Shown here: piece by piece, positions 28,089-33,904 of the stretch
Layout of the letters: every line of letters begins with the position of its first letter
Position numbering within the stretch: the stretch's first letter is position 1
Source: Escherichia phage RCIP0359
Length of the DNA: 59,541 nucleotides
Sequence record: PV778520.1
Direction: 5' to 3' (one strand)
Made by a program: the position numbers and the translations under genes
The notes under the pieces: generated by a model
Seen by the model: only the letters and a program-made list of their open reading frames with translations
What the model was told of the DNA's origin: nothing
The model's database searches: none

Positions 28089-28315
28089 TAGCGATCCTCG
28101 ATTGCTCTAATTGTGGTTAAATCTAATTCACAGGTTGGAGGGTATCCATAAAGTCCCATTTGTTTTCCTTGTGCATTAAACCATGTGCCTGACGGATCCT
28201 GCCACTGCTTAGGTGTCTTGTGGAGAAATACTACTCTGTTTTCACCGTAATAATTAATTCTTACGCCTGTGTGAGTATATTTACGTTTTCCTTTTGGTCT
28301 TCTTAAGTTAGCCAT
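28088..28315 (-). CDS. hypothetical protein
   Basis: 75 aa; TAATG coupling with flanking genes. Confidence 0.4.
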   Translation of the reverse strand: MANLRRPKGKRKYTHTGVRINYYGENRVVFLHKTPKQWQDPSGTWFNAQGKQMGLYGYPPTCELDLTTIRAIEDR

Positions 28316-29235
28316 CAGAACAACTCCATTACACGATCACGGAATGTGCCGTCATGGGTTGCATTAATGTTTGCAGCAATTACACCATAAGCCCATAAGT
28401 TGAAGGCGGCACGTGATTCATAGATTGTTGACAAACGTTCGTAAGTGAAACCGTTTTGCTCAAGGTATTTAAGGACAGCGTCTTGTTCAATTTCAGTTAA
28501 TGTTGAAACATGCTTACCAAAATGATGGCGGTCCGGTGACTTATCTGATACGCGCATTGGCCCCCACGGAGGAGTAACCACACTTCCAAACGCTGCCGCT
28601 TGAATCCAGGAGGATGAGTCACAGCTATACCACGGATAACGCTCCATAATGGTTGTTGACGTAATACCAAACGCATGAAGCTTAATCTTAGGACGACCGC
28701 TACCGTCGCAAATGTATTTGTCCCACATGCGGTCCAGCCAAGTTTTAAGCGTGTCCGTTGAACGCCCTACCATGCCACCAATTGTGATATATTCGTAGTT
28801 CTTCATGTAGTATTCAAGATAGCGGAAATCCTCACCAAAGTGAAAGCATGGTAACGGTTTAGCACCGCGTGCTTCCATTTCAAGCTGGTTACGGTAGGTT
28901 TGTAACGGATCACCGATACCATCGAGTACCGACGCCATTACAGCACCATCTTCTACGCGAAGGATGTCTTTGTTGCGCTTAATGTATTCGCAGTATTCAA
29001 CAATATCAATGTGAGCACCCAAAGAGTGCGCGGAGAATGCACCGGAGTCGAGAAACACTTTAGCCCCGTCCGCACGCATTTGATCAACATACTTCTGACG
29101 CCCAACGTAGTGGTAGGATTCCAAAATATGGGGCAGATTGCGCGTGATATTTTTCTCATGCTCAGACAGTTTTTCATAACGCTGCTGTCCAGGCATATAT
29201 CCGTTCGTGTAAACTGCTGCCATAAAAACGTTCAT
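28315..29235 (-). CDS. dpdA: DNA-guanine transglycosylase, TGT-like (DpdA)
   Basis: 306 aa; TGT-like DSG motif (FLDSGAFS) and LHAFGI..YSCDSSSW region; sits in a folE/queD/queC/queE cluster. Confidence 0.7.
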   Translation of the reverse strand: MNVFMAAVYTNGYMPGQQRYEKLSEHEKNITRNLPHILESYHYVGRQKYVDQMRADGAKVFLDSGAFSAHSLGAHIDIVEYCEYIKRNKDILRVEDGAVMASVLDGIGDPLQTYRNQLEMEARGAKPLPCFHFGEDFRYLEYYMKNYEYITIGGMVGRSTDTLKTWLDRMWDKYICDGSGRPKIKLHAFGITSTTIMERYPWYSCDSSSWIQAAAFGSVVTPPWGPMRVSDKSPDRHHFGKHVSTLTEIEQDAVLKYLEQNGFTYERLSTIYESRAAFNLWAYGVIAANINATHDGTFRDRVMELF

Positions 29236-29438
29236 TTTTGGAATGGTCCTCCAAACTGATCAATTAATTCTAAAGTACGCCACGCTTCATTAAATGCTTC
29301 GTCCGCGCGATGTTTAGCGTCAATAAGCTGCTGCTTTAAGACATCTGTAGGCGCATCATTCTGTATTGCAGAACAAGCATCCGCAGTACCTGCTTTAAGC
29401 TGATAGAATGCTGTCTCTAAGATTAGTTGTCTTGACAT
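29232..29438 (-). CDS. hypothetical protein
   Basis: 68 aa from ATG with RBS GGAGG (track start rejected). Confidence 0.4.
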   Translation of the reverse strand: MSRQLILETAFYQLKAGTADACSAIQNDAPTDVLKQQLIDAKHRADEAFNEAWRTLELIDQFGGPFQK

Positions 29439-29509
29439 ATTTCCTCCAATGACTAAAAAGCCCATACCAGTATTATGACCGATATGGGCTTGATCTGTAA
29501 AGCTATCTA

Positions 29510-30148
29510 TTATTTACAAGCTTCAAGGAACTCCCGGCGCCATTCTTTACCAATATTGCTACCATGCTCCAGTTCTGTAGCGCCCCGGAAAGCTTTAGTA
29601 ATGGTAGAGCTTCCGCATACCTGCTTAACACCGCGCGACTCCATGCACATATGCTTAGCATCGATGTAAACGCACACAGCTTTCGGGTCTAAATGCTCCT
29701 GGATAGCATCTGCAATCTGGTTAGTAAGACGTTCCTGAACTTGCAGTCGACGACTAAAAGCATCCACAACGCGAGACAGCTTACTAAGCCCAACAATCTT
29801 CCCATTGGGGACATAACCCACAACAGCACGCCCGATAATAGGAGCCATGTGATGCTCACAATGACTGTATACAGGAATATCACGGGCAATGACCATTTCA
29901 TCCGTACCTTCCGCACCATCTTCAAAGGTTTTAAACAATCCAGCGATATCTACATCGTAACCGCTAAACCACGTTGCATAAGCTTTCGCTACACGCTCCG
30001 GAGTTTCCTCCAGCCCTGGGCGCAGAACCGCGCTAACTTCAATTTGGGATAGTAAAGTACGCACAGCGTTAGCAATACGGAATTGAACACCTTCACTATT
30101 AATACTATATTTAGACATGGTTTGCAGTTTCCTTGTTAATGTGGTCAT
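29510..30148 (-). CDS. folE: GTP cyclohydrolase I
   Basis: 212 aa; conserved CEHH motif region (VYSHCEHHMAPI); alternative ATG at 30118 has a better RBS. Confidence 0.85.
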   Translation of the reverse strand: MTTLTRKLQTMSKYSINSEGVQFRIANAVRTLLSQIEVSAVLRPGLEETPERVAKAYATWFSGYDVDIAGLFKTFEDGAEGTDEMVIARDIPVYSHCEHHMAPIIGRAVVGYVPNGKIVGLSKLSRVVDAFSRRLQVQERLTNQIADAIQEHLDPKAVCVYIDAKHMCMESRGVKQVCGSSTITKAFRGATELEHGSNIGKEWRREFLEACK

Positions 30149-30149
30149 A

Positions 30150-32549: not shown

Positions 32550-32550
32550 C

Positions 32551-32739
32551 TTAGAACCCTTTAAGGCTAATATTAAGATTAACGACCACTTGTTCAACTA
32601 CATCATCAGATGTTATTTGACGCTTATGAATTTCAAGTTCCGAATGTATGTTCTTGGATGCAGCACGACAGATAGCGTCATTCAGCTCGTCTTGTAAACG
32701 TTGCATCTTCTGCATAAGAATCACAGTCTCTTCATTCAT
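32551..32739 (-). CDS. small protein, paralog A
   Basis: 62 aa; RBS AAGGTG; shares ELxxLNxAIxxAxxxxxHxELxI pattern with adjacent ORF. Confidence 0.45.
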   Translation of the reverse strand: MNEETVILMQKMQRLQDELNDAICRAASKNIHSELEIHKRQITSDDVVEQVVVNLNISLKGF

Positions 32740-32944
32740 CTTCTACACCTTTAATATCACAAGGATTGATTGTTACATTTGACATCACAATTGGATGATT
32801 GCGTGCCCCAATTGTACTAACGTGATTAATATCTAATTCTACATGTACTCCCTGCATAGTAGCGTGAGCAATTGCAGAATTAAGTTTTTCTACCAGCTCA
32901 GTGATCATTTCCTGATGCTGTTTCGCTTCTTCCAAAGTGATCAT
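32732..32944 (-). CDS. small protein, paralog B
   Basis: 70 aa; RBS AAGGTGA; tandem paralog of 32551-32739. Confidence 0.45.
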   Translation of the reverse strand: MITLEEAKQHQEMITELVEKLNSAIAHATMQGVHVELDINHVSTIGARNHPIVMSNVTINPCDIKGVEDE

Positions 32945-33200
32945 TTCTTTTCACCTTCACTAATGTTTGTTTATAATCCATACCTTCAAGGTCAACTTCT
33001 GCCATTTCACAAAAGTTATCATCTTCCCAGTATGATGTCCATTTAGTTTGACTGTCCATCAACGTTGGCTCATACTCGAATCCGTAAACTGTACCGTCTT
33101 GATCTGTAGCCAACCACCGTACCCATTCAGGGACATCAAGCTTATTGCCAAAGTATTCAACTTCTTTAGTATGCACAACCTGACTTAACACACGCATCAT
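32898..33200 (-). CDS. hypothetical protein (three-member family in this genome)
   Basis: 100 aa; RBS GGGGTGGA; shares VPxWVxWLAxDxDG...EVDLEG motif with 53494-53745 and 54076-54372. Confidence 0.5.
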   Translation of the reverse strand: MMRVLSQVVHTKEVEYFGNKLDVPEWVRWLATDQDGTVYGFEYEPTLMDSQTKWTSYWEDDNFCEMAEVDLEGMDYKQTLVKVKRNDHFGRSETASGNDH

Positions 33201-33904
33201 TCCACCCCAATATATTTGTGAACTTGAAGCTGCAACGTGTACCCGTGTTTCATACAGCTTTTGACAACCGCTTGGATGTTACTGTGGTTAAGGTCTTCAT
33301 CCTGCTCGTCCATTGGCTGTAAATATATCTTACCCTTGAACCCCTTCGGAGGTCTAGCGATAAATGGTGTAGCTTGATGATCTAATGCCTGAAGCGGTAA
33401 ACCATCTTCCACGTTTACACAGCACGCTTTAAGTACATATTTAAATGCATTAGCGCGGTACAGCACAGAAGGATGAATCTTTGAGGTCTTGGGACTACAT
33501 ACAATCACAGGCAACTGGGAAAAGTTCTTAGGTAATGGCATAGACCCATTAGTTTCGATTTGCACCAAATAGCCCCGCGATAACAGTTGTTCAATAAACG
33601 GGTTAATTTGCTGACGGAACGGTTCACCCCCAGTAATAACCACAAGTGAGGTGCTATTGCCTGATTCCAGCTTACGGCTTTCGATTAAACGCATGATATC
33701 AACAATGTGGTAAAGAGAACGACCAACAGTATAATCCGTGTCGCAGCCCGGGCATTGCAGGTTACATCCAGCAAGGCGCACAAATACCGCAGGTTGACCG
33801 CAGAATGGACCTTCACCCTGAATGGTAGAGAATACCGAATGCACGTCTAAATACATATCGTTTTCTTTAGAACGAGACTCGGGAGCTTGTTGATTAATAT
33901 TCAT
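33197..33904 (-). CDS. queE: 7-carboxy-7-deazaguanine synthase (radical SAM)
   Basis: 235 aa; radical-SAM cysteine motif CNLQCPGCDT; RBS GAGGA. Confidence 0.85.
   Translation of the reverse strand: MNINQQAPESRSKENDMYLDVHSVFSTIQGEGPFCGQPAVFVRLAGCNLQCPGCDTDYTVGRSLYHIVDIMRLIESRKLESGNSTSLVVITGGEPFRQQINPFIEQLLSRGYLVQIETNGSMPLPKNFSQLPVIVCSPKTSKIHPSVLYRANAFKYVLKACCVNVEDGLPLQALDHQATPFIARPPKGFKGKIYLQPMDEQDEDLNHSNIQAVVKSCMKHGYTLQLQVHKYIGVE

Follow-up and report, generated by a model that had tools for sequence, protein, structure and literature searches.

A Seuratvirus-type 7-deazaguanine DNA-modification cluster in Escherichia phage RCIP0359, with dPreQ0 as the expected final base

The closest described counterpart of the 7-deazaguanine DNA-modification cluster of Escherichia phage RCIP0359, which occupies positions 28315-33904 of the 59,541-nucleotide stretch analysed here (sequence record PV778520.1; this whole stretch is called the window below), is the cluster of phage CAjan. 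Liquid chromatography-tandem mass spectrometry of CAjan DNA detected 2'-deoxy-preQ0 (dPreQ0, the nucleoside of 7-cyano-7-deazaguanine or preQ0) at 70,628 per 10^6 nucleotides, about 32% of the G (PMC6884629), with 2'-deoxy-7-amido-7-deazaguanosine (dADG), the archaeosine nucleoside (dG+), dPreQ1 and 2'-deoxyqueuosine (dQ) each below 6 per 10^6 nucleotides (PMC6884629, PMC7544227). Deletion of dpdA abolishes the modification and renders CAjan DNA fully digestible (PMC6884629), and deletion of queC lowers dPreQ0 12-fold, the remainder having been ascribed to preQ0 from the host (PMC7544227). Nanopore mapping placed the CAjan modification at GA and GGC (PMC7544227). When Queuovirinae from the BASEL collection were challenged in infection assays, they withstood type I and type II restriction-modification (RM) systems but were sensitive to type III systems (PMC8594841).

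Phage 9g and Nonagvirus belong to the same subfamily, Queuovirinae, and share the DpdA type and the FolE/QueD/QueE core (PMC6884629, PMC8594841, PMC10516641), but Nonagvirus encodes a Gat-QueC fusion and makes dG+, whereas QueC of RCIP0359 is standalone and the window contains no Gat domain. Pseudomonas phage iggy, also a member of the Queuovirinae, is reported to insert dPreQ0 by means of a DpdA and to be protected by it from restriction and from Cas9 in vitro (PMC10484667); there, the motif is a strict GA and about 16.5% of G is modified, in contrast to GA plus GGC and about 32% for the CAjan type. DpdA from the Dpd system of Salmonella Montevideo (7UI4) is 17% identical to the RCIP0359 protein and longer (a chain of 413-436 residues versus 306), and its partners (the DpdB ATPase, the dADG-forming DpdC and DpdD-K) were not found in scans of the open reading frames (ORFs) of the window, which covered the cluster ORFs and 78 further ORFs of at least 60 residues across the window with Pfam, and 37 early-region ORFs with NCBIfam.

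RCIP0359 is another Seuratvirus isolate carrying the standard set of a system that is already known and published, and its cluster is very probably the 7-deazaguanine DNA-modification module of that genus, with dPreQ0 as the final base. The present analysis established which genes and motifs are present, the predicted fold and how nearly identical the proteins are to characterised ones, and the published CAjan experiments supply the identity of the base, the requirement for dpdA and for queC, the targeted sequence contexts and the protection from restriction; we infer that these results can be carried over to RCIP0359, and the role given to its YhhQ-like protein is likewise by analogy. The six genes named in the initial annotation (dpdA, folE, queD, yhhQ, queC and queE) lie exactly where it had placed them, with the dpdA stop codon ending at 28315 and the queE start codon beginning at 33904, and all are intact ORFs on the minus strand:

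28315..29235, minus strand: dpdA, DNA-guanine transglycosylase (preQ0 insertase) of 306 residues, assigned from PHROG 887, identity to CAjan, fold and motifs
29510..30148, minus strand: folE, GTP cyclohydrolase I (GTP to dihydroneopterin triphosphate, H2NTP), assigned from PF01227, TIGR00063 and CEHH
30150..30686, minus strand: queD, 6-carboxytetrahydropterin synthase (H2NTP to 6-carboxytetrahydropterin, CPH4) of 178 residues, assigned from Pfam PTPS and CRHLHGH
31242..31721, minus strand: short YhhQ/VUT-family membrane protein of 159 residues, putative preQ0 transporter, assigned from a sub-threshold Vut_1 match and hhalign
31842..32549, minus strand: queC, preQ0 (7-cyano-7-deazaguanine) synthase, standalone, assigned from PF06508, TIGR00364 and SGGQDS
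33197..33904, minus strand: queE, probable 7-carboxy-7-deazaguanine (CDG) synthase, a radical SAM enzyme (CPH4 to CDG), assigned from CNLQCPGC and PHROG 2076

Tightly packed minus-strand ORFs fill this interval, and in the direction of transcription they read queE, a 100-residue ORF, a 70-residue ORF, a 62-residue ORF, queC, the yhhQ-like gene, a 185-residue ORF, queD, folE, a 77-residue ORF and dpdA. Start and stop codons overlap between several of these neighbours, which fits co-transcription. Longest-ORF calling puts the starts of yhhQ and queC too far upstream, as seen by comparison with CAjan and with GottfriedDienst, and the corrected starts are 31721 (159 residues) and 32549 (235 residues), respectively.

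RCIP0359 is placed in Seuratvirus (subfamily Queuovirinae) by its DNA similarity to E. coli phages of that genus: three queries, one holding the cluster and two of 25 kb each, which together span most of the window, matched at 93-97% identity with 86-100% coverage. PLYYY01, OddieOddie, KS_W4, GottfriedDienst, SeppeHuegi, Seurat, CAjan and the BASEL isolates are collinear with it; no identical genome was found in the phage collection, the best being about 97% identical over most of the window. In CAjan, genes gp35-gp45 have the same order and strand as here, flanked likewise by DNA polymerase and sliding clamp genes on one side and a helicase gene on the other, and include the same standalone QueC, which in that phage goes with dPreQ0 at GA/GGC (PMC6884629, PMC7544227). 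CAjan differs in having gp39 (next to gp40), which has no counterpart here, in its more diverged QueD (77%) and gp40 homologue (55%), and in lacking the 100-residue ORF that lies here between the gp44 homologue and queE. GottfriedDienst (Bas21), whose annotation includes a 'dPreQ0 synthase QueC' and a '7-deazaguanosine inserting enzyme DpdA', is nearer in QueD (98.3%), its other enzymes being 94-100% identical. Across the Seuratvirus isolates PLYYY01, GottfriedDienst, SeppeHuegi, phiG7, CSP1, Greed, KS_A8 and SHIN8 the cluster shows 94-97% DNA identity, and the exact DpdA, QueE and QueD sequences of RCIP0359 are on record in these isolates; the exact 185-residue and QueC sequences are absent from the protein collection.

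Sequence comparison supports the presence of the four enzymes required to convert GTP into preQ0, all of them with their catalytic motifs. FolE matches GTP_cyclohydroI (PF01227; 212.6 bits, E 3.9e-63) and TIGR00063 (194.9 bits, above the cut-off of 181.6), contains the zinc motif CEHH at residue 97 and is 91.4% identical to CAjan gp37. QueD matches Pfam PTPS (PF01242) with 78.7 bits (E 4.6e-22; gathering score 22.4), its CxxxHGH motif being CRHLHGH at residue 24, and is 77.2% identical to the CAjan protein. In QueE the radical-SAM motif CxxxCxxC takes the form CNLQCPGC at residue 47; QueE models take the top five places among its NCBIfam matches (E 8.7e-28 to 1.9e-20), it matches PHROG 2076 ('QueE-like', E 1.7e-68), and it is 99.1% identical to CAjan gp45. 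QueC matches PF06508 (250 bits, E 2.1e-74) and TIGR00364 (241.7 bits, above the cut-off of 150.3), carries the PP-loop SGGQDS at residue 22 and a C-terminal CGECPAC, and is 97.0% identical to CAjan gp42 and 99% identical to the Bas21 protein. The four motifs quoted in the initial annotation were all found, and in the hidden Markov model searches that it had proposed for each enzyme family, FolE and QueC pass curated cut-offs and QueD passes that of Pfam only.

The nature of the final base depends on what would follow preQ0 synthesis. QueC is standalone, with a longest possible ORF of 251 residues and no fused Gat domain, and a PHROG QueC profile that includes Gat-QueC fusions matched over the QueC part only. 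The ORF scans described above detected no QueF, class-II glutamine amidotransferase, ArcS, DUF3109 (DpdM), formyltransferase (DpdN) or ParB-like DpdB; the families found in the 78 further ORFs belong to replication, repair and structural functions only, and QueF gave a signal with FolE alone, a cross-match below threshold of the kind expected between T-fold proteins. The window contains one gene of the PTPS family and it carries the QueD motif, indicating that a second paralogue of the DpdL type, such as that described in PMC10516641, is not present. The standalone QueC and the lack of any QueF, both noted from the start, are thus confirmed by the Pfam and NCBIfam scans, and because no preQ0-processing enzyme was found either, dPreQ0 is expected as the final base, as had been predicted; the same base has been measured in the near-identical CAjan system (PMC6884629).

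Inserted preQ0 might, alternatively, be processed further to dG+, dADG, dPreQ1 or a methylated or formylated base by an unrecognised enzyme of the phage or the host. Five cluster ORFs have no assigned function, leaving some room for this, and trace dADG in related phages has been discussed as a possible oxidation product (PMC6884629). It is nevertheless very unlikely, since no Gat, ArcS, QueF, DUF3109 or formyltransferase domain appears in the window scans and CAjan, in which four of these five ORFs have a homologue, contains dPreQ0 only (PMC6884629, PMC7544227). The fifth (100 residues) has no enzyme-like match, and the domain of the 185-residue protein is widespread, mostly in other phage groups among the matches listed.

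The preferred reading, in which dPreQ0 is the final base, requires a DpdA that acts on DNA. The RCIP0359 protein is 99.7% identical to CAjan gp35, the sole substitution being P182 here for A182 in CAjan, a position that is not among the residues named as catalytic or pocket-forming. It belongs to the phage DpdA family (PHROG 887, labelled 'queuine tRNA-ribosyltransferase'; E 2.3e-96, residues 1-292), and a GenBank entry with the identical sequence reads '7-deazaguanosine inserting enzyme [Escherichia phage SeppeHuegi]'; this sequence also occurs on 136 contigs. In CAjan DpdA, D206 acts as nucleophile and D63 as general acid/base, and S64, F67, D105, H132, G153, G154 and F189 form the pocket (PMC7544227). 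All nine residues are kept in RCIP0359 in a local context identical to that of CAjan, including the two catalytic aspartates, on whose presence in an alignment the initial annotation had made its reading depend. A profile search of the full library found 6,564 relatives; in a diverse set of 64 of these, D206 never varies, and D63, D105, H132, G153, G154 and F189 are conserved in at least 90%. From its 99.7% identity to the CAjan enzyme, we infer that this protein would exchange G for preQ0 in DNA.

Several results weigh against these assignments. QueD scores 62.5 bits with the equivalog model TIGR03367, below its cut-off of 89.25, probably because it has an insertion of about 55 residues relative to the Pfam model. 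QueE stays below the equivalog cut-offs of all five NCBIfam QueE models and scores 27.1 bits with Pfam Radical_SAM (threshold 29.5). The YhhQ-like protein falls short of the gathering score of Pfam Vut_1 (25.5 bits, E 1.9e-05, against 27.2) and is truncated (159 residues versus 221 in E. coli YhhQ), making preQ0 uptake a plausible yet weak label for it. As regards DpdA, neither the RCIP0359 protein nor the 64 relatives gave any Pfam match, TGT (tRNA-guanine transglycosylase) included, even at E 10; the NCBIfam equivalog for bacterial DpdA, NF041059, gave 17 bits for a cut-off of 200; and a profile search of PDB sequences reached Salmonella DpdA (7UI4) with a non-significant E of 0.16. Finally, the expectation of dPreQ0 in RCIP0359 DNA is drawn by analogy with the chemistry of CAjan. 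Because sequence methods miss the TGT family, the placement of DpdA in the TGT superfamily rests on its predicted fold and its motifs.

With regard to motifs, phmmer and two profile searches of DpdA against PDB sequences returned nothing significant, and hhalign against E. coli Tgt gave a probability of 3.5%; in the weak alignments with 7UI4, LDSGAF/GDCGAF, GGMV/GGMVP and CDSSS/IDSTT line up around both aspartates, whose counterparts in 7UI4 are Asp95 and Asp256; exchange of these for alanine inactivates the Salmonella enzyme (PMC10164549). A first structural model drew on 30 close homologues of about 70% identity and was of low quality (predicted local distance difference test score, pLDDT, of 61.6), and the fold search made with it was ambiguous, TGTs being mixed with ribulose-phosphate epimerases at E 1e-3 or worse; this model was replaced. 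The model from a deep alignment reached a pLDDT of 96.7 and a predicted template modelling score of 0.91, has the (beta/alpha)8 TIM-barrel fold of TGTs, and in Foldseek its top 50 matches were all TGT or DpdA, the closest being the DNA preQ0 insertase DpdA and not a tRNA TGT. Identity to CAjan, the kept residues and this predicted fold together bear out the view that the TGT-like gene encodes a transglycosylase of the DpdA type.

The DpdA fold is common to tRNA TGTs and many records still carry the older names queuine or queuosine tRNA-ribosyltransferase, so the cluster might be thought to boost or rewire queuosine in tRNA of the host or the phage instead of modifying DNA. TGTs feature a CxCxxC zinc motif. 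This motif is absent from the RCIP0359 sequence, which is also shorter (306 residues versus 373-577 in the matched TGT chains), and the top structural match is the DNA enzyme. Moreover, QueF, QueA and QueG/H, needed for finishing queuosine, are not encoded according to the window scans, no tRNA or other Rfam family reaches threshold in the window, and the 99.7% identical CAjan enzyme is needed for dPreQ0 in DNA (PMC6884629), all of which makes a role in tRNA extremely improbable. Decay or inactivity of the cluster in this particular genome has next to no probability. Nothing specific speaks for it beyond the greater divergence of QueD and the 185-residue ORF from CAjan; the ORFs are all intact and closely spaced, their start and stop codons are coupled, no catalytic motif is lost, and QueD shares 98% identity with the GottfriedDienst protein and occurs with its exact sequence in other phage isolates.

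Six relatives of DpdA (P0240, P0246, P0255, P0264, P0273 and P0305; 535-637 residues) match the profile in two stretches split after position 205, next to the catalytic Asp206 (CDSSS). These look like intein insertions at the active site, and P0246 gives a weak, below cut-off match to LAGLIDADG_3 (E 0.0018). Among the non-identical members of the same 90% clusters, HAG6100108.1 (DpdA; on a 59.9-kb contig) and WP_234740025.1 (QueE; on a 57.5-kb contig) are filed under Escherichia coli, and their contigs are probably phage contigs within bacterial assemblies.

The YhhQ-like protein was initially labelled a transporter. Profile comparison suggests homology to YhhQ, hhalign of its family profile against E. 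coli YhhQ giving a probability of 80% and E 1.4e-5 over 105 columns; the curated cut-offs are not reached, since besides Vut_1 it also scores below TIGR00697 (20.5 bits against 50.95), and the protein is short. Most of its 118 relatives have a precomputed PF02592 match, with distant ones named queuosine precursor transporter, and it is 98.7% identical to CAjan gp41. It is best described, from its sequence, as a short VUT/YhhQ-family (COG1738) membrane protein. Phage YhhQ homologues have been reported to show no correlation with any modification group (PMC6884629).

In the pathway proposed for DNA modification by the RCIP0359 cluster, FolE would convert GTP during infection into dihydroneopterin triphosphate, QueD would turn this into 6-carboxytetrahydropterin, the radical SAM enzyme QueE would form 7-carboxy-7-deazaguanine, and QueC would produce preQ0. 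DpdA, a TIM-barrel protein of the TGT superfamily, would then replace guanine by preQ0 in double-stranded phage DNA after replication, with Asp206 as the expected nucleophile and Asp63 as the general acid/base. As no further processing of preQ0 is encoded, dPreQ0 would remain as the final base, and the YhhQ-like protein may take up external preQ0 as a salvage route. The claim that this set makes preQ0 from GTP and inserts it into DNA in place of guanine agrees both with the enzymes and motifs present and with the CAjan experiments. Since DpdA is one residue away from that of CAjan, it would be expected to act on G in GA and GGC. Of the guanines in the window, 28.4% stand in these contexts; this amounts to 63,376 per 10^6 nucleotides, close to the 70,628 per 10^6 nucleotides measured in CAjan (PMC6884629). 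The further claim that the modification protects the phage from restriction holds in part: protection has been shown for CAjan (PMC6884629) and for the BASEL Queuovirinae (PMC8594841), and it is partial and depends on the enzyme. With CAjan DNA, HaeIII (GGCC) is blocked and BamHI digestion is incomplete, and EcoRI and SwaI digest it completely.

Besides the six named genes, the cluster contains five small ORFs, and a terminator-like element lies upstream of queE:

29232..29465, minus strand: small ORF of 77 residues, conserved in Seuratvirus (PHROG 20065, E 2.1e-40)
30683..31240, minus strand: ORF of 185 residues (PHROG 23361, E 1.5e-108)
32551..32739, minus strand: small ORF of 62 residues, homologue of CAjan gp43 and Bas21 gp46
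32732..32944, minus strand: small ORF of 70 residues (PHROG 26258, E 2.7e-51)
32898..33200, minus strand: small ORF of 100 residues, a variable accessory gene (PHROG 1972, E 6.6e-24)
33926..33949, minus strand: terminator-like hairpin and T-run between queE and its upstream gene (consensus match)

The 77-residue ORF, whose stop overlaps the dpdA start by 4 nucleotides, is 100% identical to GottfriedDienst bas21_0040 and 93% identical to CAjan gp36; the 62-residue ORF is 85% identical to CAjan gp43 and 97% to Bas21 gp46; and the 70-residue ORF is 97% identical to CAjan gp44. All three thus have conserved counterparts in both CAjan and Bas21, and no domain could be recognised in them with Pfam or PHROG; the label 'radical SAM domain-containing' that PHROG 26258 lends to the 70-residue ORF has no Pfam match behind it. 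The 100-residue ORF overlaps ORF 32732-32944 by 47 nucleotides, has no enzyme-like match in PHROG or Pfam, and is a presence/absence polymorphism of Seuratviruses: CAjan and GottfriedDienst lack it, and phiG7, CSP1, Greed, SLUR25/63 and ECP2304 carry copies with 95-98% DNA identity, which rule out that it is unique to this genome.

No gene of the cluster has diverged more than the 185-residue ORF (55% identity to CAjan gp40 and 85% to Bas21 gp43), which is modular. Its N-terminal half is variable and specific to Queuovirinae-like phages, and its C-terminal 60-90 residues are conserved and match several other PHROGs. In all, 717 phage records contain this domain; most of those listed are 41-48 kb genomes of other phage groups, with Salmonella, Escherichia, Klebsiella and others as hosts, and apart from stray labels the listed entries say 'hypothetical protein'. 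Pfam and PDB searches gave no match for the protein, which, together with the distribution of its domain among the matches listed, makes a place in the preQ0 pathway unlikely; it is probably unrelated to the pathway.

It is also unlikely that the embedded ORFs (185, 77, 62 and 70 residues) or the truncated YhhQ-like protein serve as functional accessories of the modification, a suggestion that has their co-location as its basis. An accessory of this kind could set the specificity or processivity of DpdA, in the place that DpdB has in bacteria; it could regulate preQ0 flux in the host; or it could provide counter-defence where 7-deazaguanine DNA comes under enzymatic attack. For the 185-residue protein, the frequency of its domain in phage groups not noted for the pathway argues against such a role.

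A preQ1 riboswitch or other RNA element was sought in the 120-nucleotide gap between queC and the yhhQ-like gene and none was found; no Rfam family, tRNA included, reaches its gathering score in the window, and nothing relevant appears at E up to 10 in 28000-34200. The hairpin at 33926-33949, a putative terminator with a 9-bp stem (6 G-C pairs) followed by TTTTT, coincides with weak Rfam matches resembling small RNA terminators. Directly upstream of it lies a promoter-like site, TTGTAA-18-TATAAT, at 33950-33979 on the minus strand. A promoter scan found 19 sites versus 14.1 expected from shuffling, not above expectation, and was not used to define operons.

Adjoining queE, at 33974-34786 on the minus strand, is a gene for a 270-residue low-complexity protein rich in Ala, Lys and Glu (annotated in CAjan as 'FtrA domain-containing'), whose repeats yield a spurious longer ORF of 302 residues on the opposite strand (33968-34876, plus strand). 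Among the ORFs in 1-23042 or 51300-59519, one matches the YAcAr / cpYpsA-related SLOG family PF10686 (E 4.9e-18) and another DnaT_2 (PF20557, E 1.2e-40). In alignments with CAjan, OddieOddie, KS_A8 and SeppeHuegi, position 1 of the window falls on their position 536, and an ORF begins at base 1, so the window seems to start about 535 bp inside the conventional genome start of the genus.

As a discovery the cluster adds little, the chemistry, genetics, motifs and restriction effect having been published for a phage whose DpdA differs by one residue. Its value lies in annotation, since it predicts dPreQ0 at about 28% of the guanines of RCIP0359 DNA. Such a modification would affect restriction cloning, nanopore base-calling and sensitivity to type I and type II RM systems, as well as sensitivity to defences directed at 7-deazaguanine DNA, such as the Dag glycosylases (bioRxiv 10.1101/2025.10.29.685425).

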